This document shows, piece after piece, positions 38,998-62,470 of a DNA stretch of 64,000 nt; position 1 is the first letter of the stretch, and the number at the start of each line of letters is the position of its first letter. Source of the stretch: Acidobacteriota bacterium (GTDB lineage: Bacteria > Acidobacteriota > UBA890 > WLXD01); the NCBI GenBank assembly GCA_965205505.1, contig CBDBHB010000006.1, forward strand, positions 288,001 to 352,000. The letters are read 5' to 3'. Under the pieces are notes generated by a model. The model made no database searches, was not told where the DNA came from, and was given only the letters and a program-made list of their open reading frames with translations. Position numbers and translations under genes: made by a program.

Positions 38998-39276
38998 CTA
39001 GCAGGCCGTGGTGAAAGTGTGGTGGGTCTGGTTACGGCGAGTTGGGGCCAGATGCAAGGCGGCCTGACACTGGCGATGCCCTAGCCATCGTCGAGGAAGG
39101 CCAACGCCGCAGATGGCCCCAAATCGCCGTAACCCTTCGGGCGACAGGGGGTTGCGCGCGTGTGCTGCGTCGTTCCTCGTCAACGATGGGGGTACCATCG
39201 CCTCCTCCTCTCTCCTTGCCTCCACCTCGCAAGACCTTGTCGCCAGACCCACCACACTTTCACCACGGCCTGCTAG
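38998..39276. mobile_element. Non-autonomous MITE-like element A (279 bp) with 34-bp perfect terminal inverted repeats ending in CTAG
   Basis: Left ctagcaggccgtggtgaaagtgtggtgggtctgg (38998-39031) is the exact reverse complement of 39243-39276. Two long internal hairpins. Intergenic within an operon. Confidence 0.85.
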
Positions 39277-39302
39277 TCCGATCGACGCCCTGCGGCGTCG
39301 CG

Positions 39303-41432
39303 TCAGGTGTCCCGTTCAGTCAGGCTCGCGCGCGCTCGGGGAACGACGAGAGCGTCCACTGCTACGCAGCCGCCAGGGCCGGCGATCAACGGGTTGATGT
39401 CGAGTCCGTCGATGAGATCACCCAGATCCACGGCGAGCACCGAGAGTCGCACGAGGGCGTCGACGACCGCGCGGGTATCGGCGGGCGACGCTCCGCGGAC
39501 GCCAGACAGCAGCCGTCGGGCAGCTAGGCCGTTCAGCAGCCGCTCGGCACGTGGCGCGTCTAGTGGCGGGAGTGCGAACGAGCGGTCACAGACGATCTCC
39601 ACCAGCACCCCGCCGGTGGCCGCCATCACCAGTGGGCCAAACTGAGCGTCGCGCACGATCCCCAGCGCCAACTCCACGCCGGCGGGAGCCATCTTCTGCA
39701 CCAACACCGGAGGGCCGAGCCGCTCGATGAGCCCGTTGCACGCGCTTTCGAAAGCCGCCGGGTTGTCGAGCCCTAAGATGACACCGCCTACGTCCGACTT
39801 GTGCGCCACTCCGGGCGCCGCGGTCTTGAGCGCTATTGGCCATCCGAAGCGCTCCGCCGCCGCGGCGGCGTCCGCGGTGCTGTCGGCCGTTTCTCCCTCG
39901 ATGGTCGGGAGACCGTAGTCGCTCAACAGCGCCAGCCCTTCCCGCTCACTCCAGCGAGCGCTATCGCTCAGTCGTCGGCGCCAGCGGTCGCGCACTTCCG
40001 CCGCGACCGGCGCCGGGGATGTGAAGCTCGGCAGCGCTGCGAAGTCGCGGCGATCGAACAACGCCCGGAAGGCTCGCAGCCCGGTAGCCGTACCCTCGAG
40101 CAACGGGACGCCGGCGTTGCGTATCAGCTCGGCCGACACCGCCGGTATCGCCGCTGGCAGGTTGCTCAAGACAGCCACCGGCTTGTCCGTCTCGGCGAAG
40201 ATCTCCGCCGCCATCCGATCGTAGAATTGCCCCGCGTCGTGGATGTAGTCTGCGAGGTCAATGACGAAGCCGAGGGCAGCGGTGTCAGGATCGGCAAGCA
40301 ACGCGCGCATGCACTCCATGAAGATCGTCTCGTAATTGGCTCCGGTGCCCCAGGCGTCGACCGGGTTCACGGCGGGCAGGCCGGGGTCCAGCACTGCCGC
40401 CAGCCGGCCCACGGTCTCGTCCGAGATCTGTGCCAGCGGCAGGCCCACGTCGGCGGCCACGTCGATGAGGTGGGCGCGTTCGCCTCCCGAGTCATGAACT
40501 GCCGCCAGCCCTCCCGGCGCCGCGCCACGGCCGCCGCTCAACAGCTCCAGCGTGTCGACCATTTCGTCGAGGTTGGCGACACGAATTACGCCGTACTCGC
40601 GGAACACGGCCTCGTAGGCTCCGTCCTCGCCGGCGAGCCCACCCGAATGCGCCACCACCAGCTCCTGCGCGAGCGGCTCGCGGCCGGTTTTCAGCACCAC
40701 TACCGGGATATCTTTCGCGTTCGCTAGCTGCAGCGCTTGGCGGAATCCCTGCGGATCACGGACCGTCTCCAGGAACATCGCGATCATGCCGGTCGATTCG
40801 AGCTCGAGCGCGTATTTCATGTAGTCGGCCACGGTCGTGGCCAGCTCCATACCAGTGGAAACCGCGAGGTTGAACTTCAACCCGCGCTGGTTGTGGGTCA
40901 TGGCGGTATAGGCCGAGCCCGAGTGGCTGAGCCAGGTGATCGGCCCGGCCTCCAGATCGGCGAGCTCCGGGTAGGCCAACGCCCGGAGCCCGTTCTCGAG
41001 GTTGAAGAAGCCCATCCCGTTGCCGCCGCAGACCGGCATTGCGTGCGCGCGTGCGATCTCGGACAGTCGCTGGGATAGCAGCGGCGCGCCCTCCTGCGGC
41101 TCTTCGTAACAACTGGCGAAGATCACCGCCGCGCCCGCGCCGCAGTCCGCGGCCAGTTGTAACTGGCCTTCGAGCAGCGAGTTCTTGACCCCGAGGATCA
41201 CCAGGTCGACCGCTTCCGGCAGGTGGTCGAGCGACGCGTAGCAGCGGAGTCCCTGCACCTCTTCGTAGCCCGGGTTGATCGGGTAGATGGGGCCCGTGAA
41301 GCCGCCGATCTTGAGCTCGGACACCATGGTGTAGCCGGCGGACCCGGGACGCTCGCTCGCTCCCACGATCGCCACGGATCGAGCGGTGAGCATGGGTGCA
41401 AGGTGCGGTTGAAGGGTGACGGTGTCCGACAT
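39303..41432 (-). CDS. Acetate-CoA ligase (ADP-forming)-family acyl-CoA synthetase, fused alpha/beta
   Basis: RSVAIVGAS, YPINP, AHSGGLAG, NPVD, HKSDVGGV, FGPLVM, LDINPL. Confidence 0.9.
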   Translation of the reverse strand: MSDTVTLQPHLAPMLTARSVAIVGASERPGSAGYTMVSELKIGGFTGPIYPINPGYEEVQGLRCYASLDHLPEAVDLVILGVKNSLLEGQLQLAADCGAGAAVIFASCYEEPQEGAPLLSQRLSEIARAHAMPVCGGNGMGFFNLENGLRALAYPELADLEAGPITWLSHSGSAYTAMTHNQRGLKFNLAVSTGMELATTVADYMKYALELESTGMIAMFLETVRDPQGFRQALQLANAKDIPVVVLKTGREPLAQELVVAHSGGLAGEDGAYEAVFREYGVIRVANLDEMVDTLELLSGGRGAAPGGLAAVHDSGGERAHLIDVAADVGLPLAQISDETVGRLAAVLDPGLPAVNPVDAWGTGANYETIFMECMRALLADPDTAALGFVIDLADYIHDAGQFYDRMAAEIFAETDKPVAVLSNLPAAIPAVSAELIRNAGVPLLEGTATGLRAFRALFDRRDFAALPSFTSPAPVAAEVRDRWRRRLSDSARWSEREGLALLSDYGLPTIEGETADSTADAAAAAERFGWPIALKTAAPGVAHKSDVGGVILGLDNPAAFESACNGLIERLGPPVLVQKMAPAGVELALGIVRDAQFGPLVMAATGGVLVEIVCDRSFALPPLDAPRAERLLNGLAARRLLSGVRGASPADTRAVVDALVRLSVLAVDLGDLIDGLDINPLIAGPGGCVAVDALVVPRARASLTERDT

Positions 41433-41509
41433 CACTCGAGCCGCCGTGAACCCGGCGCGCGATCGCAGCGATCGCGACGGTTCCTAGCGGCGGGTGTTGG
41501 AGTCTAAAA

Positions 41510-41525
41510 CTGACTGGTCATTCAG
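41510..41525. promoter_or_regulatory. Candidate TetR operator 1 (TGA(A/C)-N6-TTCA)
   Basis: cTGACtggtcaTTCAg upstream of the acyl-CoA synthetase operon. The same motif recurs at 41610, 48070 and 48179. Confidence 0.55.
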
Positions 41526-41608
41526 CCGCCGCAGACGATATCTCGCAGAACCCGGGAAGGAAAGACGTGCATGGTCTAGAATCACGGCATCGTTAGTTGA
41601 TCAACATC

Positions 41609-41624
41609 TTGAATAGGTGTTCAG
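41609..41624. promoter_or_regulatory. Candidate TetR operator 2
   Basis: tTGAAtaggtgTTCAg just upstream of the TetR start (autoregulation position). Confidence 0.6.
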
Positions 41625-41641
41625 TAACCTCCTGTGTAGGT

Positions 41642-42277
41642 ATGGCTCCACGACTCAAGATCAGCCGCAAGCGGCGCCAGGAGATCCTCGAGGCCGCGGT
41701 GGAGACGATTGTCGAGCGCGGCGTTTGCAAGGCGCGAATTGCCGACATCGCCGACCGCACGGGAACGAGCCCCGCTCTGGTGCTCTACTACTTCGAGTCG
41801 AAGGACCGACTGCTCACCGAGGCGTTGGCCCATGCGGAGGACCGCTTCTATCTGGCGATCTTTGCCGAGCTGACCACGCTGGAGAGCGCCAGCGAGAAGC
41901 TCGTGCGGCTCATCGAGCTCAGCTGCGGTCACGAAACCATGGCACCAGTGCTGCGCGACGACTTCGCCCTTTGGATCGAGCTGTGGTCGCGGGCGCTGCG
42001 CGACGACGCCGCCGCCAAGAAGCGGGCCGCGGGCGATCGTCGCTGGCGCGCCACGATTGCCGATATCGTCCGTGAGGGCGAGTCGGCTGGCGAGTTCGAT
42101 GCTGTCGACGTGGAGGACTTTGCCATGCACCTCGCCTGCCTCCTCGATGGCATCGCAGTGCAGCACGTGCTGGGGGACCCGGAGGCCGACTACGAGCGCG
42201 CCCGCCGGATCTGCGTCCGCATGGCGTCGGAGTCCCTTGGTTTCGGGGTCCCGGCGTTGGTGACGGCGGACGCCTGA
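41642..42277 (+). CDS. TetR family regulator, BetI-like
   Basis: RRQEILEAAVETI...IADIADRTGTSPALVLYYFESKDRLL HTH, LWIELWSRA, LACLLDGIAVQ. Confidence 0.92.
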   Translation: MAPRLKISRKRRQEILEAAVETIVERGVCKARIADIADRTGTSPALVLYYFESKDRLLTEALAHAEDRFYLAIFAELTTLESASEKLVRLIELSCGHETMAPVLRDDFALWIELWSRALRDDAAAKKRAAGDRRWRATIADIVREGESAGEFDAVDVEDFAMHLACLLDGIAVQHVLGDPEADYERARRICVRMASESLGFGVPALVTADA

Positions 42278-42371
42278 AGCCGTCGCGATCAAGGAGCTCC
42301 GGCGAGCGGGCGCGCACGATATTTGCCCTGCTCACTTGCGTCCGATGGGCGCAGTCGGCGAGGCTCCCGCG

Positions 42372-43633
42372 ATGGTCTTCCACCCTCGCGATCCTGCTTG
42401 GCGCCGCGGTGCTCTCAACCGCCGTGAACTGCTGCGCATCGTCGGTGGCGCTGGACTCAGTGCCAGCCTTGCCGGTTGCGGCTGCAGCGCCGGCGCTGCA
42501 GCCGACCGCCGGCGCGTCCTGATCGGGACACCGGAACACCCGGTTCGGCATCCGATATTCGATGACAACCCTCCGATCGACGGCGGCCTGGATATCGAGC
42601 CCGGCCCGTTGCGGATCTTCAACTGGGCCGACTACGTCCACATCCCGGTCTTGAACGCGTTTTCGGAGCGTTACGGCGTCGACTGGGAGTACACGACCTT
42701 CTACAACAACGAAGAAGCGATCCGTAAGCTGCGTACCAAAGCGGGCCGCTTCGACGTCTTTTTCCCGCCGGTCGAGCAGATACCCAAGTGCATAGCCGGT
42801 CAGCTGTTGCAGCCGCTCAACCACGCCTACCTGCCCAACCTCGCCAACGTGTGGCCGAGCCTAGTGAGCCCCTTCTACGATCAGGGAGCACGCTACACGG
42901 CTCCGTACTCGGTGTACCAAACAGGTATCGCCTGGCGGGCCGACATGGTCTCCCCTGACCTCGAGGCGTTGACCATCCGTGGCAGGTCTTCTGGGATCCT
43001 CAGTATTACGGGATCGCCGGCATGTACGACGACTACAAGGAGACCGTCGGGGTCGGCCTGTACGCCACCGGAACCAACGAAATCAACACCGCGGACCCGG
43101 CGCTGCTCGAGAAGGCCCGCCGCAAGCTGCTCGAGCTCATCGATCTGATCAACGTCCGCTTCACGATCGACGGTGTCTACGCCAAGATGCCGGAGCGTGG
43201 GTTCGCGCTGCATCATGCCTGGTCGGGCGATGTCGTTCAGTCGCGAGGCTACTTTCCCCGGGGTGAAGATCCGTCCGTGATGCGCTACTTCTGGCCGCCG
43301 CGGTCCGATCAGTCGAGCGCCGGCGGTATGGTTTCGGTGGAGTCCTTCGCCATCCCTCGCAACGCCGAGCATCCCGTGTTGGCGCATCACTTCATCAACT
43401 TCATGCTCGAGACCGCGAACGCCCTGAGCAACTTCGGATGGATCGGCAACCCACCGCCGCTGACGACGCTCAATCCGGAGACATTCGTGTCCGAGGGGCA
43501 CATACCACCGAACCTCGCTACTACGATCACCATCGAAGACGACTTTTCGATTGGCCAGCTGCCCCTTCAGCTGTCGCCTGAAGTCGAGATGGAATGGATG
43601 AAAGTTTGGGCGTCGGTTCAGTCAGGTGGCTAG
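42372..43633 (+). CDS. potD: Spermidine/putrescine ABC substrate-binding lipoprotein (Tat signal), split by a 1-bp frameshift at about 42975
   Basis: LNRRELL...LAGC Tat/lipobox, LRIFNWADY, LPNLANV, YTAPY, WSGD, AIPRNAEHPVLAHHFINFML. Inserting one A (acc a[a]t ccg) restores ...LTNPWQVFWDP... Confidence 0.85.
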
Positions 43634-44537
43634 CGCCGCTGACTTCTCGCGCAATCGAACGTGGTTGTGGCGAGCGCTTGCAGCTCCCGGGATCGCATGG
43701 TTGCTGCTCTTCTTCGTCACACCGTTCTACGCGTTGCTATCGGTGGCGATGGGACGCCTCGACCCGATCTTCAGCAGCGCCGAGCCGGTCTGGAACCCGA
43801 TCCACTGGAACCCCGCGATCTTCCCCGAGATACTGGGCGAGCTGTTCGGCGGCCGCCTGGGGGCGATCTTCATTCGCACGCTCGTCTATGTCGGCACAGC
43901 GTCCACGCTCTGTCTGCTGATCGGTTATCCGGTCGCGTACTACCTCGCGCGCCACGCGGGTCGCTGGCGAGGACTGCTACTCGGTCTGATCGTCGCCCCC
44001 TTCTGGATCAACTACCTGATGCGGATGATGGCCTGGCAGAACCTGTTGGCGGTCGATGGTTACGTGAACCGATTTCTGATGTTCATCAACGCGCTCGATG
44101 CCCCGCGCGCCTGGCTGGTGGGTCACCACGAGACGGTGATTCTGGGGCTCGTGTACGGCTATGTACCGTTCCTGATCCTGCCACTGTACGCCGCTCTCGA
44201 CCAGATCGACAGCAGCGTGTTCGAAGCGGCACGCGATCTCGGCGCCGGCCCGGTGCGCACCTTCCTGCACGTAACGTTGCCGCTGTCCAAACAGGGAGTG
44301 CTGGCCGGCGTCGTGATCATCATGCTGCCGCTGTTCGGCGACTACTACACGCCGAATCTCCTCTCGGGGTCACCGCGCACGCGAATGATCGGCAATGAGA
44401 TCGATCTGTTCATCAACAGCGGCGTCGGCGGTGCCACCGGAGCCGCGCTGACGGTGGTCTTGATGGCGTTCATTGCGCTGTTGATGGCCTACTATCTATT
44501 TACCGTCATGGGCGCGGCGCGCGACAGCCAACAGTGA
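43626..44537 (+). CDS. potB: Polyamine ABC transporter permease
   Basis: IGYPVAYYL, PFWINYLMR, YVPFLILPLY, EAARDLGA loop. Confidence 0.9.
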   Translation: MASAADFSRNRTWLWRALAAPGIAWLLLFFVTPFYALLSVAMGRLDPIFSSAEPVWNPIHWNPAIFPEILGELFGGRLGAIFIRTLVYVGTASTLCLLIGYPVAYYLARHAGRWRGLLLGLIVAPFWINYLMRMMAWQNLLAVDGYVNRFLMFINALDAPRAWLVGHHETVILGLVYGYVPFLILPLYAALDQIDSSVFEAARDLGAGPVRTFLHVTLPLSKQGVLAGVVIIMLPLFGDYYTPNLLSGSPRTRMIGNEIDLFINSGVGGATGAALTVVLMAFIALLMAYYLFTVMGAARDSQQ

Positions 44538-45403
44538 TCGGCCGGGTCATTCGCTGGTGGCGTGACCCGTGGGGTCAACCACGACTGTTGCAGCTGTTTG
44601 TCTGGGTCTACATTGCATGGTCGTTGTTGCCGGTGCTTATTGCCGTGCAATTCGGGTTCAATGCCGGCCGGTCGCGCAGCATCTGGCAGGGGTTATCGCT
44701 GCGCTGGTACTTCACCGATCCGACCCTGTCCGTCTGGAACGATGGGTCGCTGATAGCAGCGTTGACGCAAAGCCTCAAGCTCGCCGGGCTGACGATGCTG
44801 GTTGCCACGCCGCTCGGTGTGGCGCTGGCGCTCGGCCTTGCAAGGTGGAGGGGTCGCGGCTCGAAGCCCGCCAACTTCCTGCTGCTGCTGCCGATGGCGA
44901 CCCCCGAGCTGGTCATGGGCGTGTCGCTGCTCATGGTCTTCATCTACCTGTTTCCGTTCATTCAGCTCGGCACGTGGGCGCAGCTCATCGGCCATGTCAC
45001 ATTCACGATCTCGTACGTCGTCATAGTGGTACGCGGCCGCCTCTTCGCGATCGGCCGCGACTATGAAGAGGCGGCGATGGACCTCGGCGCGACCCCGGCG
45101 CAGGCAGTGCGCATGGTGCTGCTGCCGCTCATGGCGCCGGCGATCTTCGCCAGCCTGATGATCGCCTTCGCGGTGTCGATCGACGACTTCGTGATCAGCG
45201 CGTTCCTCTCCGGAGGCGCGGATTCGGCGACGATTCCTGTGCGTCTCTACAGCGCTGCGCGCCTGGCGCCGACGCCGGCGCTCAACGCGCTGGCCAGCAT
45301 CCTGCTGTTCCTGACCCTTCTCGCGGTGGCCGGCGCGGTGCTGGTCATGCGACGGTCGGGAGGCAGCGGATCGGCCGTCGACGAGTTCGCGCGGCTCAGC
45401 TGA
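44534..45403 (+). CDS. potC: Polyamine ABC transporter permease
   Basis: SLRWY, TPELVMG, EEAAMDLGA, FAVSIDDFVIS. Confidence 0.9.
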   Translation: MIGRVIRWWRDPWGQPRLLQLFVWVYIAWSLLPVLIAVQFGFNAGRSRSIWQGLSLRWYFTDPTLSVWNDGSLIAALTQSLKLAGLTMLVATPLGVALALGLARWRGRGSKPANFLLLLPMATPELVMGVSLLMVFIYLFPFIQLGTWAQLIGHVTFTISYVVIVVRGRLFAIGRDYEEAAMDLGATPAQAVRMVLLPLMAPAIFASLMIAFAVSIDDFVISAFLSGGADSATIPVRLYSAARLAPTPALNALASILLFLTLLAVAGAVLVMRRSGGSGSAVDEFARLS

Positions 45404-45500
45404 TATGTGCGGTGGTCCTCTGTGCGGCGGTGCCGGGCTCTCGATGCCCTGACTCCGGATGCTGCAGCAGCCGGGGCTACCGGGTCTGGTCGGGCGTCCT

Positions 45501-46600
45501 TCAGTCACTTCCCAGCACGCGCAGCGCTGACGATGCCAGGACTACCGACACGCGGCTGCCCCTCGAGTAGGCCATCGTGTCGCCATGATTGGTGATCATG
45601 GCTTGCACCGTCTGGCCGCCGTCGAGCTGAATGAACATCTGCGTGATCGAGCCCATGTAGACTAGGCGCTCGACCTCGCCGAGCAGCCGGTTCGGTCCCG
45701 GCCGGTCGGGGTTGCCGACCTCCAGCCGCTCCGGTCGAAGCATGATCTTCACTCGACCGCGGGCGTCGAGGTCGCCGCTCCCGGCAACCAGCTCGCTGTC
45801 GCCGATCGCCACCCGACAGCCGCCGTCTGGGTGGTCGCCCAGGGCCTCGCCGTCGATGACGTTCGATACCCCCAGGAAATCGGCCACGAAAGCGCTGGCC
45901 GGCTCTTCGTACACCTCGCGCGGCGGGCCCAGCTGGCGGATCGTGCCCTCGTGCATGACGCACATGCGGTCAGACAGTGCCAGCGCTTCCTCCTGATCGT
46001 GGGTGACGTAGACAAAGGTGATCCCGACGCGCTCCTGGATTCGCTTCAGCTCCACCCGCAGCGTTCTCTTGAGCTGGGCGTCGAGCGCGCCGAGCGGCTC
46101 GTCGAGCAACAGCACCGCGGGATCGAGCACCAACGCGCGGGCCAGGGCGACGCGTTGTTGCTGGCCGCCGGAAAGGCGCGTCGGCCGCCGATCGATCATG
46201 CCCTCCATCTGCACCAGCTCGAGCGCGTGCCGCACTCGCTCGCCGATCTCCGCTCTGGGGAGGCTTCGAAAGCGCAGCCCGAAGCCGACGTTTTCGCCCA
46301 CGTCGAGGTGGGGAAAGAGCGCATAGCTTTGAAAGACGGTGTTGACGTTGCGCTTGTGCGGCGGCGTCTCTGATAGATCTTCTCCGTCGAGGTAGATCTG
46401 GCCGGCGGTCGGTCGCTCGAAGCCGGCGACCAAGCGTAGCAAAGTGGTCTTCCCACACCCGGACGGTCCGAGGAGAGAAAGAACTCGCCCGGCGCCACCT
46501 CCAGGTCGACGTCGCGCACAGCGGTGAGGTCACCGTAGCGTTTGACTAGCCCGCTGAGACGCAGGTGGCCACCGTGTTCGCTGTCCTGCCCGACTGTCAA
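45501..46600 (-). CDS. potA: Polyamine ABC transporter ATP-binding protein, split by a 1-bp frameshift at about 46478
   Basis: Adding one T to the TTT run restores GEFFSLLGPSGCGKTTLLR. VFQSYALFPH, LSGGQQQRVALARAL, LLLDEP, TOBE-like C-terminus. Confidence 0.88.
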
Positions 46601-46664
46601 ACAGGCACCCTTGTGCCGGCTCGCCGTGCGGCCACCGGTGACCCCCGGCAGCTGCTTGTCGGAC

Positions 46665-48044: not shown

Positions 48045-48068
48045 CGCAGCCTACTCCGTGGATATTCT

Positions 48069-54002: not shown

Positions 54003-54184
54003 CCGGAGGGTGCGACAATTCGCCTGACAGCCGGCCGCGCAATCGCTTGGCGCCGACGGCGCGGTAGCCGTGACCCCTACGAGTCTCGCGGTCCGTCGCG
54101 GACCCTCCATCCGCGCGGCCGAACGTGATACAGATTCGCCAGCTGAACTTCACTTCTCGTTACGCGTCGACTCCGGAGGCACCC

Positions 54185-56098
54185 GTGCCTGGAAAGAGAG
54201 CAAGCTGGTCCCTGATCGCGATCGCAGCGCTGGTCACTGCAATTCTGGTATCCGGCGGTGCCGCGAGCCAGGCTTCCCAGGACGGCTACGAGGTACGCCG
54301 CGACCGCAGCAACATGGTGCCGATGCGGGACGGCGTGCGGCTGTCGACCGATCTGTACTTCCCCGAAGGCACCGAGGGGCCCCACTCCACCGTCCTCATC
54401 CGGACGCCCTACAACAAGGAGAACAGTGGCCGCGGCACCACCGTTTCGATGTTCGTCGACAAGGGCTACGTGGTGGCGGTGCAGGACATCCGTGGCCGCT
54501 ACGAGTCTGAAGGCAACTACCGGTTGCGCTATTCCGACCGCGAGGACGGCTACGACACAGTGGAGTGGATGATCAACCAGTCGTGGTCCAACCAGAAGGT
54601 GGCCAGCTTCGGCTGCTCGTACCTAGGCGAGACGCAGCTGGCGCTGGCGGCTTCCAAGCACCCCAATCACATCGCGGCGATGCCCGCGGCGCCCTCGTCG
54701 GCCTACTACCCACCGGGGCGGCCCTGGGCGTCCTACGACGGCGGCGTGTTCGAGCTGGCGCAGACGGCCGGCTGGTTCATGGGCGCCGGTAGCAAAGTGT
54801 TCCTGCAGCCACCGGATTGGGTCGACCGCGAGGAGTGGTTCAAGGGCGAGATGGCGCGCAAGTTCGAGAACTACGCCGACCCTCGTCGTGGCACCGAGGG
54901 TGGCGGCCGCCGAAGCCGCGTCGGCGCCTTCGACGCTCTACCGGTGATCGACCTCGTCAAGAACACCGGCATGACGCACACCGACTACGAGGAATACCTC
55001 ACCAATCCGCCGGAGTCTGATTACTTCTACGACAACGACTTCATCCGCTCCGACGACACCTTCGACGTGCCGGCGCTGTACATCGACTCCTGGTACGACT
55101 TCGGCGTCGACGAGACGCTGACGATGTTCAACCAGATGCGCGACAACGCGGTCAGCGAGCACGCCCGCAGCAACCAGTTCGTCATCGTCGCCCCGTCGAC
55201 CCATTGCGGTTGGACGCGCGCCACCGAGAACACCATCATCGGCGAGCGTGAGCTCGGCGACGCGCGCAAGGACTTCCTCGACATCTACATGCGCTGGATG
55301 TCGCACTGGCTCGACGGCGAGGACAACGGCATCACCGACATGCCGCGGGTGCAGTACTACCTGATGGGCGCCAACGAGTGGCGCGAGTCGGAGGTATGGC
55401 CGCCGGAGGGCACCACCGACACGAAGCTTTACCTGAACTCCGGCGGCCGCGCCAACAGCCGCTTCGGCGACGGCACGCTGTCGTGGAGCGCCCCGAGCGG
55501 CGATCAACCGGCCGATCGCTACACCTACGATCCAGGTACTCCGGTGCCGACGCGCGGCGGCAACACCTGCTGCACGGGTCTGCCTGACGGCTCAGGTAGC
55601 TATGACCAGTCGAACAACGAGATGCGCGCCGACGTCCTCGTCTATACGTCCGAGCCGCTGGAGGAAGGCATCGAGATGAGCGGCGACATCAGCGCGGTGC
55701 TCTACGTCGGCTCCGACGCGAAGGACACCGACTTCATGCTCAAGCTCGTCGACGTCTACCCAGATGGACGCGCCTTCAACATCCAGGAAGGCGCGCGCCG
55801 CGTGCGCTACCGCGACAACGACTCGGTACCCGTTTGGATGGAGGAAGGCGAGGTCTACGAGATCCGACTCGACCTGCACTCGTCGTCCAACTACTTCGGC
55901 AAGGGGCACCGGATCCGCGTCGACGTGACGAGCAGCGACTTCCCGCGCTTCGACCGCAACCTCAACACCGGCGGCAACAACTACGACGAGACCGAGTGGG
56001 TGGTGGCCCAGCAGATCGTGGAGCACTCGGCGCAGTACCCGTCGCACGTGATCCTGCCGATCGTGAAGTCGGGTGCGGTCGCCGACGACGAGGAGTAG
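54185..56098 (+). CDS. Exported CocE/NonD family serine hydrolase (paralog 2, tandem duplicate)
   Basis: Same RBS/start context and motifs as paralog 1, with long near-identical stretches. Confidence 0.92.
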   Translation: MPGKRASWSLIAIAALVTAILVSGGAASQASQDGYEVRRDRSNMVPMRDGVRLSTDLYFPEGTEGPHSTVLIRTPYNKENSGRGTTVSMFVDKGYVVAVQDIRGRYESEGNYRLRYSDREDGYDTVEWMINQSWSNQKVASFGCSYLGETQLALAASKHPNHIAAMPAAPSSAYYPPGRPWASYDGGVFELAQTAGWFMGAGSKVFLQPPDWVDREEWFKGEMARKFENYADPRRGTEGGGRRSRVGAFDALPVIDLVKNTGMTHTDYEEYLTNPPESDYFYDNDFIRSDDTFDVPALYIDSWYDFGVDETLTMFNQMRDNAVSEHARSNQFVIVAPSTHCGWTRATENTIIGERELGDARKDFLDIYMRWMSHWLDGEDNGITDMPRVQYYLMGANEWRESEVWPPEGTTDTKLYLNSGGRANSRFGDGTLSWSAPSGDQPADRYTYDPGTPVPTRGGNTCCTGLPDGSGSYDQSNNEMRADVLVYTSEPLEEGIEMSGDISAVLYVGSDAKDTDFMLKLVDVYPDGRAFNIQEGARRVRYRDNDSVPVWMEEGEVYEIRLDLHSSSNYFGKGHRIRVDVTSSDFPRFDRNLNTGGNNYDETEWVVAQQIVEHSAQYPSHVILPIVKSGAVADDEE

Positions 56099-56108
56099 GC
56101 GAACGCCG

Positions 56109-58433
56109 TCAGCCCGTCGTGAGCATTCCGGCCGCGATGCCGGTGACGGTTTCGCGGAAGAGGCTTTGCTCAGCGCGGCTCCAGCGCGGCTTCGAGAGCA
56201 GCTCGATCTGCAGCAAGTTGAGCGGGTGGATCATCGGCGCCCGGTAGTGGATCGATTCCTCGAGCCAAGGTCGATCGGGCAGCAGGGTGCCTTCGGAGGT
56301 GGCTGAGCAGGCGAGCTCGACGGCGGCGGCATAGCTGCCATCGAGCTTGCGCGCCAGCTTGCGTACCGCCCGCGGCGCCAGCGCCCGGCGATAGGCGAGC
56401 CAGAGCTCGGGCTCGGTCTTGGCGAGGGTGAACGACAGCAGGCGCAGGTAGCTGCGCAGCAGCGGGTCGCGGCGCCGCGCCGAGGTCAGGCGCTTGACGG
56501 CGTCGCGCGATTCGGCCAGCCGGCTCCACGCTTCGCCGATTCCGAGCCAGGCGTGGAGCAGAAGCCGCGTCTGAGTCCAGCACAGCACCCACGGAATGGC
56601 GCGCAGCTTCTCGAGACCCGCCTTCTCGGCGGCGCCTGCGCGCCGCGTGGGACGTGAGCCGATCGTCAGCGCTTGGAGCCGCGCGTAGGGCGTCGCGTCG
56701 CGGAGCAGGTCGTGGAACGTCTCGGAGCCGACGAGCTCGGCGAAGACGCGCTCCGAGCTTTCCGCCAGCTCGGCGGCGAGCTTGCCGACGCCGCGATAGG
56801 CGGGCGGGTCGGTCTGGATCGAAGCCACCTTGTGCACGAGACTGCGGAGAATTTCCGGTGTCGCCAGGGTGCGCTCGATCATCTCCCCCTGGAGCGTGTG
56901 CTTGTACAGCGAAAGCGCGGCGGGCGGCCAGGTCGCCGCCAGGTCGTCGATCGTGCCCCCGCCCCGCCCGACGCTGCCGCCGGAGCCATGGAAGAAAACC
57001 ATCCGCACGTCCTGCCGCTCGGCCCAGGCCCCCAGCTCGCGCATTGCTCGATGGACCCCGACTCGGCTGGCCAGCATGCCCATGCGCTTGGCCGTGTCGG
57101 AGTAGCCAAGCATCACCTCGACCTGGCCCCGCCGACGTGCGCAGGAGCGGAACTCGCGATCCGTCCAGGCATCGCTGAGAATCCCGCGAGCCCGCGCGAT
57201 CACCTCGGGCAACTCGAAGAGCGGGATCACCGGGATGAGCGGCCGGCCAAGCATCCGCGTCACGAGGCGCTGCGCCTGAATCAGGTCAGATCCCTCGGAC
57301 GTCATGCTCACCACGCAGCCGCGCGCGTACCAGTCGACCTGCCCGCCGTCGGCGATTCGACCCAGAGTGCGCAGCATGGCGGCGATCGGGGTGCCGCGCT
57401 CGAACCGGCCGCGCTCCTCGCGCAGCTCCAGCGGCACGACGAGCGCGGGGAAGACGTCGAGCAGCGTGGCCAGGCTCGTCACCTGCGGCTGCTCGGCCGA
57501 CAGACGGCGCCGGTAGGCCGACTGGAAGCGCTGGACGCTTCGCTGGAGCTTCAGGATGCGGCCGCCGTCGCCGGCCCTCACCCTGCGGACCGCTGCGAGC
57601 GCCTCTTCGAGGCCCGCCTGCGCCCGATCGACCGGCAGGCTGCCGAGCAACGCGGCGTCCTCGCGAACCGCCGCCATCAGGCCGGTCTCCACGAACTCGA
57701 GAAATCGCTGCCGAGCGAGCTGCAGCGACGCCCGGCTCTGGGCTGCTCCCACGCCCGGATGCCCGTCCTTGTCGCCCCCGACCCAGGTGCGCAGCAGCAA
57801 CCGGTGGCCCGAGGCGTTGAGCGCGACGATCTCGTCGAGGATCGGGTCGGTGAGTAGCGAGTACAGGTGCGCCGCCTCGTCCTCGACCGTCGGCTTGTGC
57901 GGCGGGTGCGTGCCGACGCGCCAGGCGAGCTGGAGAAGGTTGCCGAGCTGCGATCGGTCGATGGGTCGACCCGCCTCCAGCGATTCCACCAGCAGATCCT
58001 GGACGCGGCGCAGCAGCCGGATGTTCTCCGGCGAGCGCGACTCGGTGGGATGCGCCGTCAGCACGAAGGTCATGCACGCCCGCGCCTCCGACGGCGCGCG
58101 GCGGCGTTCGCGCAGCCGATGGGTCCGGAAGGCGTTCTCGCACACGTTCACCAGCTCCAGGTAAAGGGTGTAGGCGCGAGCCACCAGCAGCTGGCGTTTT
58201 ACCGGGAGGGCGACAAGCCGTCGCCTGCCGCGCGCGAGCGCACCGGCACGCCCGCGTCGACTCGAAGCTTCGCGGAACGCGACCATGTCGCGCCGCACCC
58301 GCTCGATGATCTCGTAGAGCTCGGCGCCCTCGGCCACGGCCACGACCTCGCCGAGGATCGCCTGGACATCGCCCACCAGCGTTCGCAGCGCCGGCGGCAG
58401 ATATTGCGGTTCTTTCATTCGGTTACTGGCCAA
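56109..58433 (-). CDS. ppc: Phosphoenolpyruvate carboxylase, short divergent form
   Basis: LTAHPTE, WVGGDKDGHP, IPLFE, VMLGYSD, FHGSGGSVGRGG, TLQGE, IGSRP, LRAIPWV, C-terminal GIAAGMLTTG. Start could be ATG 58418. Confidence 0.85.
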   Translation of the reverse strand: MASNRMKEPQYLPPALRTLVGDVQAILGEVVAVAEGAELYEIIERVRRDMVAFREASSRRGRAGALARGRRRLVALPVKRQLLVARAYTLYLELVNVCENAFRTHRLRERRRAPSEARACMTFVLTAHPTESRSPENIRLLRRVQDLLVESLEAGRPIDRSQLGNLLQLAWRVGTHPPHKPTVEDEAAHLYSLLTDPILDEIVALNASGHRLLLRTWVGGDKDGHPGVGAAQSRASLQLARQRFLEFVETGLMAAVREDAALLGSLPVDRAQAGLEEALAAVRRVRAGDGGRILKLQRSVQRFQSAYRRRLSAEQPQVTSLATLLDVFPALVVPLELREERGRFERGTPIAAMLRTLGRIADGGQVDWYARGCVVSMTSEGSDLIQAQRLVTRMLGRPLIPVIPLFELPEVIARARGILSDAWTDREFRSCARRRGQVEVMLGYSDTAKRMGMLASRVGVHRAMRELGAWAERQDVRMVFFHGSGGSVGRGGGTIDDLAATWPPAALSLYKHTLQGEMIERTLATPEILRSLVHKVASIQTDPPAYRGVGKLAAELAESSERVFAELVGSETFHDLLRDATPYARLQALTIGSRPTRRAGAAEKAGLEKLRAIPWVLCWTQTRLLLHAWLGIGEAWSRLAESRDAVKRLTSARRRDPLLRSYLRLLSFTLAKTEPELWLAYRRALAPRAVRKLARKLDGSYAAAVELACSATSEGTLLPDRPWLEESIHYRAPMIHPLNLLQIELLSKPRWSRAEQSLFRETVTGIAAGMLTTG

Positions 58434-58561
58434 TGCCTCCCCCCGTTCCGCGGCTCGACTTGATCATAAGAGGCTGGCCGACGGTGTGGAGAATCGAAGT
58501 CAGTTGACGTAGGTCGGCGCCGCGATAGTTGCCGGGCGTCGTTTCGGCAGGCGCTCTCCGC

Positions 58562-59488
58562 TCAGACAGGATCGCGCCGCAACGGCTGCGCCATGCAGTG
58601 CACGCCACCACCGCCCTTGGCGAACATCGACACGTCGGGGTCGTAGACCTCGAATCCCATGGCGCGCAGGCGCGCGTTCAGGTCGGTGCTTTCGGCGGTA
58701 GAGAGGATGCGATCGTTGCCCAGCGACATGACGTTGCAGCCGAGCGTCATGGTGTCCTGAAAGCTCACCGGCACGATCTCGATGCCCTTGGCCTCGAGCC
58801 AGTTGACGATCGACGGTTCGGTGGTCTCCAGGCACACGGCGCAGGCCTTCTCGGCGAGCATGCAGACCATCAGGTCGATGTGCACGTAGAACGGGTCGAT
58901 CGGGGCGTAGCGAACCTCCCAGCCCTCGGCCTCCATCCAGCCGCCGATCTGTTTTGCGGCGACCTCCTCGCAGCGAAATCCGGTATAGCCGATGAGCACG
59001 CAGTCGGGGCCGATGATGTTGAAGTCGCCGCCCTCGAAATTGCCCGCCGACACCAGGTCGTAGAGCGGGATCCCAGCGCTGGCATAGAACCGCAGGACCG
59101 AGGCGTACTCACCGCGCCTTCGCGGGTTGGCGAGCTGGCAGACGACGGCGCCGTAGGGCGTCATGAAGCTGGAGTCGCGCGCGTATACCTGGTACGGGGT
59201 GGACTCGTCGACCTCGAGCAGGTGCACGGTCACTCCCGCGGATCGATACGCATCCACCATCTCGACGTGCTGCCGCGTCGCCAGCTCGTGGTCGAATTTC
59301 TCGCCTGACTCCAGCGTGGCGCGCGAGATCGAGCTGAACTGAGCGTTGTCCGCCATCCAGTAGAAGCTGTCCGGCGGCCCCAGCAGCACGTCGCGCAGAG
59401 CGCCGTGCTCGGAGCTGATACCCCAGTCGTCGAGGGCCGGCGTGTTGCCGCCCGGGTGTCGTGTTCTGAAAGATGTGTCGCTCATCAT
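58562..59488 (-). CDS. Amidinotransferase/dimethylarginine dimethylaminohydrolase (pentein) family protein
   Basis: SEHGALRDVLL, YARD, RRGE, EGGD, HID, C-terminal KGGGGVHCM catalytic Cys. Confidence 0.88.
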   Translation of the reverse strand: MMSDTSFRTRHPGGNTPALDDWGISSEHGALRDVLLGPPDSFYWMADNAQFSSISRATLESGEKFDHELATRQHVEMVDAYRSAGVTVHLLEVDESTPYQVYARDSSFMTPYGAVVCQLANPRRRGEYASVLRFYASAGIPLYDLVSAGNFEGGDFNIIGPDCVLIGYTGFRCEEVAAKQIGGWMEAEGWEVRYAPIDPFYVHIDLMVCMLAEKACAVCLETTEPSIVNWLEAKGIEIVPVSFQDTMTLGCNVMSLGNDRILSTAESTDLNARLRAMGFEVYDPDVSMFAKGGGGVHCMAQPLRRDPV

Positions 59489-59686
59489 TTGCTCGCGATC
59501 GGATCGGAGCTCGATCTGGAAGCGCCATGCGCCTCCCGGGAATTCTGGCTCTAGGCGCTCCGTATACTCGCACGGTTCGCGTCGGCGGTGGGGGGCCGGT
59601 ACCATCCGCGCACCGTGGAATCTCCCCCCGTGCGCGCGAGAGGATGACGGACAACGTCCATCAAAGGCTGAAGGAAGCGTGACGCC

Positions 59687-60859
59687 ATGGAATTCCAGCT
59701 ATCCGATGAGCAGGAGATGGTCGTCGAGACCGTCCGCGCCTTCGTCGAAAAAGAGCTCGTTCCGCACGAGGAGGAAGTCGAACGCACCTGCGAGCTATCG
59801 GACGAGCTGCGCCAGCAAATACGAAAGGCGGCGATGGACGCCGGGCTTTGGGCCGCCAACATGCCCGAGGAGTTGGGCGGCGGTGGACTCGATACCGTGA
59901 CCCACATGCTCCTGGAGCGGGAGCTCGGTCGCACCAACCTGGCGCTGCACTGGGAAGTCTACCGACCAAGCAACATCCTACAGGGCGGCACGCCCGAGCA
60001 GATCGAGGAATACCTCATGCCGTGCATTCGCGGCGAGCGCTTCGACTGCGTCTCGATGAGCGAGCCCGACGCCGGCTCCGATGTTCGCGGTATCACCACG
60101 CGTGCCGTCCAGGACGGCGATGACTGGGTGATCAACGGCTCCAAGCACTTCGCGTCCTATGCCGACGTGGCCGACTTCATCATCCTGTTCGTCTCCACCG
60201 GGGTCGACGAGACGCCGCGCGGCCCGAAGGCCCGCATTACGACGTTCTTGGTCGACAAGGGCACCCCGGGGTTCACCTGGCACCGCGGCTCCCAGGCCGT
60301 AGGGCTTCGCGGTTTCCACCACTGCGAGCTCTTCTTCGACGACTGCCGCGTTCCGGCCTCGAAGGTGCTCGGTGAGGAGGGCAAGGGATTCGATCTGGCC
60401 AATACCTGGCTGTCGGCGGCGCGCATCGGCACCTCGGCGAACTCCATTGGCAAAGCACGGCGTGCTCTGGAGATAGCCACCGAGTGGGCCGCCACGCGCA
60501 AGCAGTTCGGCCAATCCATTGGCCGCTTCCAGGGCGTGTCGTTCAAGCTCGCCGACATGGCCACCGAGCTCGAGGCGGCCGAGCTGCTGACGTTTCGAGC
60601 CGCTTGGAAGCACGACCAGGGAACGATGACCGAGCAGGACGCCGCCATGGCAAAGCTCTACACCAGCGAGATGCTCGGGCGTGTGACCGACGAGGCGTTG
60701 CAGATCTTCGGCGGCATGGGTTTGGTGTCGGAGCTGCCGCTGGAGCGCATGTGGCGCGACGCTCGCGTCGAGCGGATCTGGGAGGGGACCAGCGAGATCC
60801 AGCGCCATATCATCGGGCGCATGCTGTTGCGTCCGCACGAACAGCGGGCCGGATCGTAG
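59687..60859 (+). CDS. Acyl-CoA dehydrogenase
   Basis: SMSEPDAGSD, NGSKHF, RKQFGQSIGRFQGVSFKLADM, LQIFGGMG, RIWEGTSEIQR. Confidence 0.95.
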   Translation: MEFQLSDEQEMVVETVRAFVEKELVPHEEEVERTCELSDELRQQIRKAAMDAGLWAANMPEELGGGGLDTVTHMLLERELGRTNLALHWEVYRPSNILQGGTPEQIEEYLMPCIRGERFDCVSMSEPDAGSDVRGITTRAVQDGDDWVINGSKHFASYADVADFIILFVSTGVDETPRGPKARITTFLVDKGTPGFTWHRGSQAVGLRGFHHCELFFDDCRVPASKVLGEEGKGFDLANTWLSAARIGTSANSIGKARRALEIATEWAATRKQFGQSIGRFQGVSFKLADMATELEAAELLTFRAAWKHDQGTMTEQDAAMAKLYTSEMLGRVTDEALQIFGGMGLVSELPLERMWRDARVERIWEGTSEIQRHIIGRMLLRPHEQRAGS

Positions 60860-60922
60860 TCGCGTGTTCTCGGTTCTGGCGATCTCGGCGCTGCTGCCGC
60901 TGCAATCGGGTCCGGGGTCGCC

Positions 60923-62170
60923 TTGAGCGTGGCGGACGACCTGCGCGTCGACGGTGGGCGCCTGCTGTCGAGCCTGATGGAGATGGCGTCGATCGGAGCC
61001 ACCCCGAAGGGCGGCGTCGACCGTCAGGCGCTGACGGACGGCGACCGAGAAGCGCGAGATTTGTTTGCCCGCTGGTGCGCAGATGCCGGCTGCAGCTTGA
61101 CCGTGGACGCGATGGGAAACATGTTCGCCCGTCGTCCAGGCGCCGACGACACCCTGCCGCCGGTGGCCATGGCCAGCCATCTCGACAGCCAGCCAACCGG
61201 TGGAAAGTACGACGGCGCCTACGGCGTGCTCGCTGGCCTGGAGGCAGTACGCACGCTCAACGACGACGGCGTGCAGACCGAGGCGGCGCTCGAGGTGATC
61301 AACTGGACCAACGAGGAAGGCGCCCGCTTTCCTCCAGCGATGATCTCATCGGGAGCGTTCGCCGGCGTGTTCGACCTCGAATATGCCTGGAGCCGCGCCG
61401 ATCACCAAGGGTTGACCATCGGCCAGGAGCTGGATCGGATCGGCTACCGCGGCGACGAGACGGTCGGCGACCACCCCCTGGGGGCGTGTTTCGAGCTGCA
61501 CATCGAGCAGGGTCCGATTCTTGAGCGCGCTGCTACCCCGGTCGGCATCGTCACCGGCGTGCAGGGCATGCGCTGGTACGACGTCGCGCTGACCGGTGAC
61601 CAGGCGCACGCTGGGCCCACCCCGATGGAGATGCGTCGCGATGCGCTCGCCGGAGCCGCGTCGCTGCTATCGAAGATCTACGCGCTGGCAACCGATCGGG
61701 CGCCGTCGGGACGGGCAACGGTCGGCGAGCTGCACACCGGCAGGGGGTCGCGAAACACGGTTCCGGCGAGTGTGAAGTTCACCGTCGATATTCGACATCC
61801 CGAGGAAGCCGAGCTCGAGGCGATGGATGCAGGTCTCCGCGCGGCTGCCGCTGAAGTGGCCGCCGCTGCTCGGCTGGAGTATTCGATCGACCACATCTGG
61901 TCCGCCGCTCCGGTGGCGTTCGACTCCGGTTGTATCGCCGCGGTGCGCCAAGCTGCCGAGACCGTCGGCTGCGCGGCGATGGAGATCGTCAGCGGTGCCG
62001 GACACGATGCGGTTTACGTCTCCCGGGTCGCACCCACGAGCATGATCTTCGTGCCCTGTGAGGGCGGGATCAGCCACAACGAAGCCGAGCACGCCGAGCC
62101 TGACGATCTCGAGGCCGGCGCCAATGTCCTGCTGCACGCGGCGCTAGCTCGTGCTGGAATAGCAGGCTAG
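60923..62170 (+). CDS. Zn-dependent N-carbamoyl-amino acid amidohydrolase/beta-ureidopropionase (peptidase M20)
   Basis: SHLDSQPTGGKYDG, WTNEEGARF, ELHIEQGP, HAGPTPM, SGAGHDA, GISHNEAE. Confidence 0.92.
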   Translation: MSVADDLRVDGGRLLSSLMEMASIGATPKGGVDRQALTDGDREARDLFARWCADAGCSLTVDAMGNMFARRPGADDTLPPVAMASHLDSQPTGGKYDGAYGVLAGLEAVRTLNDDGVQTEAALEVINWTNEEGARFPPAMISSGAFAGVFDLEYAWSRADHQGLTIGQELDRIGYRGDETVGDHPLGACFELHIEQGPILERAATPVGIVTGVQGMRWYDVALTGDQAHAGPTPMEMRRDALAGAASLLSKIYALATDRAPSGRATVGELHTGRGSRNTVPASVKFTVDIRHPEEAELEAMDAGLRAAAAEVAAAARLEYSIDHIWSAAPVAFDSGCIAAVRQAAETVGCAAMEIVSGAGHDAVYVSRVAPTSMIFVPCEGGISHNEAEHAEPDDLEAGANVLLHAALARAGIAG

Positions 62171-62191
62171 TCCTACTGATCATGAGTACGG
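62167..62191 (+). repeat. Degenerate copy of the element B terminal repeat
   Basis: ctagtcctactgatcatgagtacgg versus TIR ctagtgctcctgatcataagtacgg (3 mismatches in 25 bp). Begins at the CTAG containing the amidohydrolase stop codon. Confidence 0.75.
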
Positions 62192-62193
62192 CA

Positions 62194-62470
62194 CTAGTGC
62201 TCCTGATCATAAGTACGGTGACGTTTGTGGCGCGCGACCGGGGCGAATTGTAGGAGCGGCGACGAGGGCGATGCTGGGTGTATCGTCGAGGCGCCGCGAC
62301 GCCCAAGGTGGCCGGTCCCGCGGCCACCCGGAGGGCAGGAGCGATATGCGGGCGATCTCGGCGTCAAGGCTCGTCGAGGATGGCTAAGGCATCGCCTTCC
62401 TCACCCTTCCTTGATCTCGCCCGCATCTCGCTCCTGCAAACGTCACCGTACTTATGATCAGGAGCACTAG
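62194..62470. mobile_element. Non-autonomous MITE-like element B (277 bp) with perfect terminal inverted repeats ending in CTAG
   Basis: actagtgctcctgatcataagtacggtgacgtttg (62193-62227) is the exact reverse complement of 62437-62471. Internal hairpins. The right CTAG contains the stop codon of the methyltransferase gene. Confidence 0.85.

Follow-up and report, generated by a model that had tools for sequence, protein, structure and literature searches.

Two CTAG-bounded elements lie in the 64,000-nucleotide stretch of an uncultured Acidobacteriota genome analysed here (the window), and an earlier note on this DNA had pointed out that they combine different terminal repeats with one internal architecture. 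This raises the question of what kind of elements these are, how they move, and what the shared interior is kept for.

Two elements and their superfamily

Element A (38998..39276, 279 bp) is an intact two-module miniature inverted-repeat transposable element (MITE) of family A, with the architecture a> M> M< a<. Its left terminal inverted repeat (TIR) is a perfect one of 34 bp (38998..39031, +), where, by flank analysis, the CTAG comprises a C, the duplicated TA and the first element base, G; the right TIR occupies 39243..39276 (-). The left hairpin module, of class m1 with its sense on the plus strand (39032..39137), corresponds to a match of model R1 (G000:C6:327032-327137 +, E 6.9e-25; G000 being the genome of the window) and holds the apex hairpin core at 39072..39094 (+). 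The right module is of class m0 with its sense on the minus strand (39138..39242, limits by symmetry), and a central CCC-N3-GGG junction (CCCTTCGGG) lies at 39133..39141. Element B (62194..62470, 277 bp) is likewise an intact two-module MITE, of family B (b> M> M< b<), with perfect 34-bp TIRs at 62194..62227 (+) and 62437..62470 (-), a left module of class m4 (62228..62330, +, limits approximate), a central CCC-N3-GGG junction (CCCGGAGGG) at 62327..62335 and a right module of class m5 (62331..62436, -; R1 match G000:C6:350331-350436 -, E 1.9e-24). Every feature that the earlier note had described in A and B was found where it was placed, including the starts of the strict core GGCGATG-N7-YATCSTYGA at 39072 (+), 39202 (-), 62267 (+) and 62396 (-). 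The TIRs do differ beyond CTAG, sharing 18 of 30 aligned positions, close to the 13-17 given by unrelated ends. The description as head-to-head dimers is right for the architecture but does not imply that a module was duplicated recently: within one element the left module is only 56-57% identical to the right one, and the two are of different classes. Both elements fold far better than shuffled sequences (z -12.85 for A and -12.94 for B; none of 200 shuffles as good).

Element A is flanked by two minus-strand ORFs, one with its ATG 29 nt from the left end (37784..38968) and one ending 26 nt to the right (39303..41435). Element B lies between a plus-strand ORF (60923..62170), the TAG stop of which sits in a CTAG at 62167-62170, and a minus-strand ORF (62467..63264) that stops at a TAG complementary to the CTA of B's terminal CTAG. 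The first of these CTAGs opens a 27-bp B-like TIR remnant directly left of B (62167..62193, +). Phage records, plasmid records and viral contigs gave no match to element A. Contigs from RNA-labelled libraries (X16-X18 and X20), in which DNA may be present, span 38998-39276 and have loose ends at both borders of A; as contigs reveal neither transcription nor its strand or ends, they speak neither for nor against a transcript here.

All 40 scored candidates (of 325) match element A over its full length at 93-100% identity, and element B has 23 further full-length matches at 97-99%. The superfamily to which they belong comprises 399 loci with 373 modules in at least seven terminal-repeat families, amounting to 0.92% of the bases of the genome. 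The strict core occurs 197 times, always within modules, against approximately 0.02 occurrences expected from base composition. Both dimeric and monomeric forms exist, as the earlier note had asked: two-module copies number 44, 16, 16, 7 and 2 in families a, b, c, e and f, and one-module copies 12, 3, 4, 1 and 3, respectively. One-module forms are internal-deletion derivatives, and their existence means that two modules are not strictly needed. Among the 84 two-module copies with complete ends, 56 carry the central CCC-N3-GGG; of their 168 halves, 97 have a strict core beginning at position 75 and 53 carry a variant core. A composite of 552 bp, formed by an A element lying inside a C element, exists in about four copies.

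The hairpin module and its range

The module is an imperfect hairpin of ~105 nt, and an element consists of a TIR, one module, an inverted second module of another class, and a TIR. In the own-genome alignment 88.2% of cells are paired, compared with 66.9% in shuffles, and both sides have changed in 25 of 34 pairs, a level reached by none of 500 shuffles (slid controls, 33-49%). A separate set of 38 modules, drawn from other genomes, has compensatory changes in 30 of 32 pairs. Pairing is kept while stem sequence is free, as the earlier note proposed. Its proposal had been made to depend on further copies and covariation and, since further copies and strong covariation were found, it is not refuted on that count; the recognition in trans that it suggested for the folded module is putative. 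We also considered a peptide reading of the AAGGAG...ATG in the core and abandoned it, since a peptide would not survive the compensatory pair changes of the stems.

Certain features are conserved within the variable stems. The module retains a GA-N-GA/GA-N'-GA internal loop, the middle pair of which covaries (CG 9 and GC 4 in the own genome; CG 26, GC 9 and AU 2 in other genomes), and the apex GGCGAUG-loop-CAUCGUC, in which one G.U is conserved. The GACGA-opposite-GAGGA purine loops, CAAGG and RACGCC persist throughout 14 module types and in some 20 other genomes while stems vary freely. One alignment shows a strong mismatch bias toward G.U (35 to 7, 11 coming from one conserved pair), the other-genomes alignment a modest one (38 to 22).

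By family, the module classes are A=(m1,m0), B=(m4,m5), C=(m2,m3) and E/F=(m2,m6). With identities of 75% between m5 and m2, 80% between m4 and m6, and 68% between m1 and m3, there are about four classes, reassorted among terminal-repeat families. The module is found in 25 of 41 relatives and, phylum-wide, in 46 of the 151 genomes sampled, which represent 34 of 105 genera (a count that includes the unpublished G071). Distant families retain a TAGCAGGCYGT...GAAAG...TGGGYC end and a length of 278-284 bp. When contigs from all phyla were scanned for the bare core, which specifies 16 bases, 118 single matches resulted; model R1 found a module in two of the first 80 loci scored (L109 from Acidobacteriota, and L069, labelled a proteobacterium), and the rest were chance matches. 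The module is real and old. No Rfam family matches the window at gathering score, nor do six element loci match any at E values of 1 or below. Full-text searches turned up no description of the module; the supplementary lists of conserved MITEs in PMC11602168 might include these elements. The kind of element is a familiar one, a MITE, and it is the shared, structured ~105-base hairpin module that is new.

Insertion, the probable transposase and the possible use of the fold

CTAG is present on both sides of 70 of 108 complete copies. Deviants mostly differ in the outermost base on one side only (TTAG...CTAG, ATAG...CTAG, CTAG...CTAA), which fits x-TA-y targets. The search for empty sites suggested by the earlier note succeeded for B, the site being empty in G001 with a single CTAG, and the 27-bp remnant is part of the insertion relative to that genome; at the A site of G004 just the last 56 bp of A remain. 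Perfect 34-bp TIRs, TA duplication, small size with many copies, absence of an internal transposase and insertion polymorphism make A and B MITEs, and the TA duplication in CTAG is the signature of IS630/Tc1-mariner elements, which supplies the placement that the earlier note could not give. IS630-family elements insert at TA and duplicate it according to PMC2170065, the reference list of which names the CTAG preference of IS630.

The genome of the window has six DDE_3 genes in two types of insertion sequence (IS). The ends of type 1 (CTAGTGTCCTGAGTCAG...) share 23 of 30 positions with family F, 20 with E, 18-19 with B and 13 with A. An autonomous partner, as sought by the earlier note, is suggested for B-F, the ends of which appear to resemble those of IS630-family (DDE_3) elements in the same genome; none with A-type ends was found in this genome, in the IS630 copies of relatives or in 62 loci of other Acidobacteriota. 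Pairs of A-type ends 1.4-1.5 kb apart in this genome enclose host genes (by eye, a RidA-like tandem and a TonB-like gene) and not a transposase. In the IS903 group the target duplication is 9 bp. Derivation from that IS5-family group was rejected, as the sole DDE_Tnp_1/DDE_Tnp_1_5 element of the genome has no TA or CTAG flanks and the family does not fit; the likeness is confined to its ends, which partly resemble A-type ends (CAGGCGTTGGTG against CAGGCCGTGGTG). HUH/REP-type mobilisation, which the earlier note had listed among possible recognisers, is unlikely given the 34-bp TIRs, the TA duplication and the absence of Y1_Tnp from all five genomes searched. The module is missing from the IS630-family insertion sequences of this genome and its relatives, so A and B are not decayed copies of one IS, as the earlier note had held.

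We consider it probable that A and B belong to an old, phylum-wide Acidobacteriota superfamily of MITEs, mobilised in trans by an IS630-type enzyme, with a fold that is kept in lineages and may serve the element. Under this explanation the elements would insert at TA, preferably in CTAG, duplicating TA, and IS630/Tc1-mariner transposases would provide the enzyme, as end similarity suggests for B-F and as we infer for A. The module would not derive from present insertion sequences, and its classes would have been reassorted among terminal-repeat families. Compensatory change in multiplying lineages would have kept the fold, namely the outer stems, the GA loop with its covarying middle pair and the G.U apex, and inserted copies would afterwards decay almost neutrally. 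The fold of the strand with its 5' end at the element end may serve the element, through mobilisation or by making insertions tolerable; it would probably work via a binding protein and have no host function at each locus. Roughly half of the copies lie against a stop codon, and under this explanation these would be transcribed along with the gene into long RNA hairpins, in the manner of ERIC and Correia elements. To our knowledge, no cis role of the interior in transposition is known for IS630 elements.

Single copies decay almost neutrally, with changes at 5.6% of paired and 7.1% of unpaired positions and with 132 G.U versus 103 A.C in decayed copies. This bears on an alternative that we regard as unlikely, in which the module is a host-useful RNA element behind genes (a 3'-end stabiliser, processing site or read-through insulator) and the symmetric two-module design shows the same sense hairpin to transcripts from either side. 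The genomic context fits such a role: the TAG of a long high-GC3 ORF adjoins 49 of 104 elements compared with 932 of 5334 free CTAG sites, and 45 of 130 intergenic copies lie in convergent regions (background ~20%) and 16 in divergent ones. There is a precedent in ERIC and Correia elements, transcripts of which are cleaved by RNase E or RNase III according to PMC10969869. The sense strand, the better folder in 13 of 14 module types, is also the one read on entry from outside. However, the same stop-codon and convergent enrichment is expected from purifying selection against harmful insertions, and neither A nor B has a sigma-70-like or intrinsic-terminator-like site inside or alongside. One-module copies have no preference for the sense orientation toward the incoming gene (6 sense only, 11 antisense only, 6 both and 2 neither; n=25, crude gene calls). 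Near-neutral decay and the lack of an orientation preference together indicate that selection seems to act on proliferating lineages rather than on each locus.

It is also doubtful that the module is a functional folded RNA or single-stranded DNA (with tandem G.A pairs and a G.U apex), bound by a protein that Acidobacteriota conserve, that truly determines mobilisation or persistence, moving between TIR families and multiplying without an IS630 transposase. Recognition of the folded module, instead of the TIR, by a putative structure-specific mobilising enzyme is improbable; it would explain one module on unrelated TIRs and many copies in genomes free of DDE_3, and the conserved unpaired purines and G.U speak for it. 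Only 8 of 26 related genomes were found to have DDE_3, and the module-rich G002, G003, G011, G012, G129 and G155 lack it; all of these but G155 are described as near-complete, G003 being in two contigs with 106 A-type ends and G129 in a single contig. This pattern, like the failure to find an autonomous element with A-type ends, counts against the IS630-type explanation. Furthermore, G003 has its own family consensus, differing from that of the genome of the window in 11 of 284 columns while orthologous flanking DNA is 76-84% identical. Against this, the youngest copies are still two (own genome) and four (G003) positions off their consensus, no Y1/HUH transposase was found in the five genomes, and the perfect TIRs, TA duplication and B-F end likeness to DDE_3 elements fit an ordinary transposase. 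It is common for MITEs to lose their transposase once a burst is over. The least probable reading, that the hairpins are functionless palindromes paired by intrastrand templated repair or conversion with a core shared by common descent, agrees with near-neutral decay and with the generally palindromic nature of MITEs, but homogenising repair would yield complementary arms instead of persistent asymmetric GACGA/GAGGA loops, CAAGG and RACGCC, a length of 276-281 bp is held in 82 of 84 two-module copies with complete ends across families, and model scores at the same places are 85-110 bits for sense and 31-37 bits for antisense.

Significance and comparison with known systems

These elements concern a phylum that is abundant and poorly studied, and in which mobile DNA has hardly been described. 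In roughly one in three of the genomes sampled, the superfamily adds structured repeats by the hundred; because it adjoins the stop codons of many genes and is a marker of recent change in the genome, it matters for annotation, assembly and strain typing. One internal fold, kept in end families that would each call for a different transposase, raises the question of whether the interior of a MITE aids mobilisation or tolerance, and the covariance model could become a new family in repeat and RNA libraries.

The ERIC/IRU elements of enterobacteria, about 127 bp long, are like those described here in being small intergenic imperfect palindromes tied to the IS630 group. PMC11602168 quotes an ISfinder comparison that lists them as MITEEc1_IS630, and PMC10969869 describes ERIC as often located at gene 3' ends and co-transcribed, its long RNA hairpin altering mRNA decay. 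In contrast to the present elements, ERIC is one palindrome from another phylum, with no two-module build and no reassorted classes.

The Correia elements (NEMIS/CREE) of Neisseria resemble ours in being TIR-bounded and present in many copies, and they too have a TA duplication. They are ~100-200 bp, AT-richer and promoter-carrying with one end family, whereas the elements here have several unrelated end families, a covarying internal hairpin and no promoter-like site found. According to PMC10969869, Correia transcripts form hairpins that RNase III cleaves, and the elements contain an internal binding site for the protein IHF. IS630 and ISY100 share the TA target and its duplication, with a CTAG preference for IS630 (PMC2170065), and the DDE_3 elements of this genome have TAGTG... 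ends; in contrast, the elements here encode nothing, their internal sequence bears no relation to that of the insertion sequences, and A-type ends match no IS found.

REPIN/RAYT systems and the PATEs of IS200-IS605 likewise have inverted pairs of structured repeats, with recognition of folded single strands, but they lack long TIRs and target duplication and require a Y1 (HUH) transposase. The mosaic repeats BOX (pneumococcal) and BIME (enterobacterial) combine a few modules in various ways. BOX is mentioned in PMC10969869. Unlike these mosaics, which have no TIR and TA-duplication structure and the modules of which are not homologous hairpins, the elements described here join TIRs and TA duplication to homologous hairpins with one conserved core.

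Elements A and B and their copies in the genome

The window contains two elements, A (38998-39276, 279 bp) and B (62194-62470, 277 bp), both of which are bounded by perfect terminal inverted repeats of 34 bp. The sequence features ascribed to them in the earlier note are all present as described, including the coordinates, the strict cores (GGCGATG-N7-YATCSTYGA, starting at 39072+ and 39202- in A, and at 62267+ and 62396- in B) and the centres (CCCTTCGGG at 39133-39141 and CCCGGAGGG at 62327-62335, respectively). Both fold far better than their shuffles (z = -12.85 for A and -12.94 for B). Beyond the terminal CTAG, the repeats of A and B have 18 of 30 aligned positions in common, little more than the 13-17 of unrelated ends. 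Immediately to the left of B, at 62167-62193, is a 27-bp remnant of a terminal repeat resembling those of B (CTAGTCCTACTGATCATGAGTACGG..), and an 18-nt piece at 12652-12669, lacking a module, matches the A-type terminal repeat.

The genome (5.98 Mb, 64% G+C, nine contigs) contains many further copies, which the earlier note had proposed to seek by a genome scan. Searching with a profile built on the ~105-nt unit of the interior, an imperfect hairpin hereafter called the module, identified 373 modules, and chaining these with matches to six typed terminal-repeat sequences (families A to F, types a to f) produced 399 loci that together span 55,011 bases (0.92% of the genome). Strict cores number 197, where ~0.02 would be expected, and every one is within a module. 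Full-length matches to A numbered 40 (93-100% identity) among 40 scored of 325 candidates, with 23 additional full-length matches to B (97-99% identity). Two-module copies carry ends of type a (44), b (16), c (16), e (7) and f (2), and one-module copies those of type a (12), c (4), b (3), f (3) and e (1); 82 of the 84 two-module copies with complete ends are 276-281 bp long. Other arrangements comprise ~12 hybrids, none of them found more than twice, several nested forms, and numerous ends that stand alone or are truncated (97 of type a); a seventh end type, TAGCAGGGTGCTGAAAAACTC..., borders copies tabulated without ends. Many further copies are broken off at variable inner points, and in very short derivatives of ~40-90 bp (e.g. 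C9:1392410, C9:1710867, C8:508525 and C6:92737) an internal deletion between short repeats has brought an A-type end up against ..GGCCTGCTAG.

Within a family the module pair is constant and made up of two different modules, namely m1 and m0 in A, m4 and m5 in B, m2 and m3 in C, and m2 and m6 in E and F. The two modules within one element are 56-57% identical, and identities across families are 75% (m5/m2), 80% (m4/m6) and 68% (m1/m3). The same module class therefore stands next to unrelated ends, which explains the earlier description of A and B as having unrelated repeats and the same architecture.

Insertion site and genomic setting

CTAG is found on both sides of 70 of 108 complete copies. 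Deviant flanks are mostly one-sided and affect the outermost base (TTAG...CTAG 4, ATAG...CTAG 3, CTAG...CTAA 2 and CTAG...CTAC 2), a pattern that agrees with duplication of a TA within an x-TA-y target, the element ends being G...C, and disagrees with a 4-bp duplication. Insertion into TA with duplication of the TA is a property of the IS630 family (PMC2170065, the reference list of which names the IS630 preference for TA in CTAG). CTAG is strongly depleted both in the genome (5853 sites versus ~19,700 expected by base composition) and in the window (50 versus 211). An empty site in a relative, a check proposed at the outset, was seen for B in the same-genus genome G001, where a single CTAG stands at that position; relative to this site, the insertion comprises the 27-bp remnant and B together. 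In the closest relative (G004), B is absent at the B site and only the last 56 bp of A are left at the A site. A composite of 552-557 bp, in which an A element lies within the apex loop of a C-element module, is present in ~4 copies (C9:1325510-1326066, C9:2938806-2939357, C8:236954-237505 and C9:2856772-2857322), indicating that C-type ends moved a larger cargo, the composite, as one unit.

Based on gene calls from a crude in-house ORF caller (3865 genes, 74.5% coding), intergenic positions account for 130 of the 134 bounded elements, with 45 of these copies between convergent and 16 between divergent genes (background ~20% each). A TAG ending a long high-GC3 ORF adjoins 49 of 104 elements (eight on both sides), compared to 932 of 5334 free CTAG sites. 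B lies between two convergent ORFs, 60923-62170 (+) and 62467-63264 (-), the stops of which are in the flanking CTAGs at 62167-62170 and 62467-62470; on insertion in a CTAG common to two stop codons, the TA duplication restores both stops. A lies between two minus-strand ORFs; in their reading direction, the stop of 39303-41435 (-) comes 26 nt before the element and the ATG of 37784-38968 (-) 29 nt after it.

Fold of the module and probable level of selection

RNAalifold analysis of one real copy for each of 14 module types predicts a single extended hairpin with 34 pairs, of which 25 show both-sided changes. Paired cells amount to 88.2%, compared to 66.9% in shuffles and 33-49% with partners slid, and none of five pairing measures was reached by any of 500 shuffles, although these counts are somewhat favoured because the structure came from the same alignment. 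A separate MAFFT alignment of 38 modules from ~20 other genomes yields this fold too, and 30 of its 32 pairs are compensated; covariation, which the earlier note had proposed to examine, is seen within and beyond this genome. CAAGG, RACGCC and the arms GA-N-GA and GA-N'-GA next to the apex are conserved and for the most part unpaired. The middle bases of these arms pair and covary (CG 9 and GC 4 in the 14 types; CG 26, GC 9 and AU 2 in the 38-module set), and the other arm bases would form tandem G.A pairs. In the apex, GGCGATG/CATCGTC, a G.T(U) pair is kept in 11 of 14 types.

The sense strand, with its 5' end at the element end, is purine-rich and scores 85-110 bits versus 31-37 bits for the antisense of the same places. 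In 13 of 14 types it forms a better fold than the complementary strand under RNA parameters (mean difference -8.2 kcal/mol), and in 11 of 14 under DNA parameters. We infer that the folded sense strand serves the element, in mobilisation or by making insertions tolerable, and that it would do so through a putative factor binding it. Less likely alternatives are a structure-specific mobilising enzyme, as yet hypothetical, a host RNA function of the module and, least likely, the functionless upkeep of a palindrome. For the HUH nuclease, one of the recognisers suggested previously, no counterpart was found, Y1 (HUH) transposases being absent from all five genomes searched (this genome, G002, G003, G004 and G011).

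G.U exceeds A.C by 35 to 7 in the RNAalifold alignment, 11 of these being a single conserved pair, and by 38 to 22 in the 38-module alignment. No Rfam family matches the window (gathering score) or six element loci (E up to 1), one-module copies have no sense preference towards the incoming gene (sense only 6, antisense only 11, both 6, neither 2), and a search in and beside A and B gave neither promoter-like nor terminator-like sites. Among distinct sequences, departures from the family consensus affect 5.6% of the paired positions and 7.1% of the unpaired ones, and single changes within families give 132 G.U and 103 A.C, counts that come from copies related by descent and carry no statistical test. 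The fold is thus kept between families and hardly within them, which points to selection on multiplying lineages rather than on individual insertions. Consistent with this, the consensus of family A differs between this genome (43 copies) and G003 (20 of the listed copies) in 11 of 284 columns; mean pairwise identity of A copies is 94.6% and 93.0% within the two genomes, respectively, and 92.1% between them, compared to only 76-84% for orthologous flanking DNA, reflecting either slowly evolving master copies or transfer between lineages.

Range in the Acidobacteriota and probable relation to IS630

R1, a model of the module, has matches in 25 of 41 relatives (9 of 10 in family f1 and 11 of 15 in family f2). 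For genomes sampled from the phylum, a cutoff of E up to 1e-6 gives matches in 46 out of 151, and in 34 of the 105 genera, counting the unpublished G071. Exact-pattern matches of the A-type end occur in records titled uncultured Acidobacteriota. Elements of other genera and families have TA-flanked ends and two-module copies of 274-287 bp (341 bp in G035), and A-type ends of distant families are recognisable as TAGCAGGCYGT...GAAAG...TGGGYC. Phage records, plasmid records and viral contigs gave no match. One module match (L069:5503-5609, 45.7 bits, E 4e-9), with no clear terminal repeat, is in a MAG labelled 'uncultured proteobacterium', the label or binning of which may be wrong. A and B can safely be regarded as TA-duplicating MITEs of an undescribed, phylum-wide superfamily; full-text literature searches turned up no description of them, nor did passages from two prokaryotic MITE papers, PMC10969869 and PMC11602168.

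No transposase-bearing element with A-type ends was found in the genome, nor an autonomous partner with such ends in 62 loci from other Acidobacteriota; the IS630 copies of relatives include none with A-type ends, and all their ends start TAGT.... The IS630-family transposase domain DDE_3 was found in 8 of 26 related genomes. G003 (two contigs, 96% complete) has 106 A-type ends and no DDE_3 found, and the domain was likewise not found in G002, G011, G012, G129 (one contig) and G155. Insertion sequences contain no module, module matches in their loci being adjoining MITEs. In G007, eight of nine IS630-family copies examined directly abut A-type terminal repeats (L293, L300, L303, L306, L308, L310, L312 and L313), as do, by eye, three of six in the present genome (C9:264247, C9:1373242 and C8:138173), which could reflect a target preference for ..CTCC-TA-GGAG.. 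or attraction to A-type ends. A single IS5-family element (DDE_Tnp_1_5 and DDE_Tnp_1, 297-aa ORF; L345:1009-2094, equivalent to C8:559608-560693) is bounded by inverted ends of 21 bp, ACAGGCGTTGGTGCATGGCTC, and shows no clear duplication.

Six DDE_3 genes in the genome belong to two insertion sequence types of 1190 bp (two copies) and ~1145 bp (four copies), with 99.7-100% identity between copies. Of 30 positions, the ends of type 1 (CTAGTGTCCTGAGTCAG... and CTAGTGTCCTGAGTTATAAATTC...) have 23 in common with family F, 20 with E, 18-19 with B and 13 with A. Judged by terminal sequence, the ends of families B to F probably link the superfamily to IS630-family elements.
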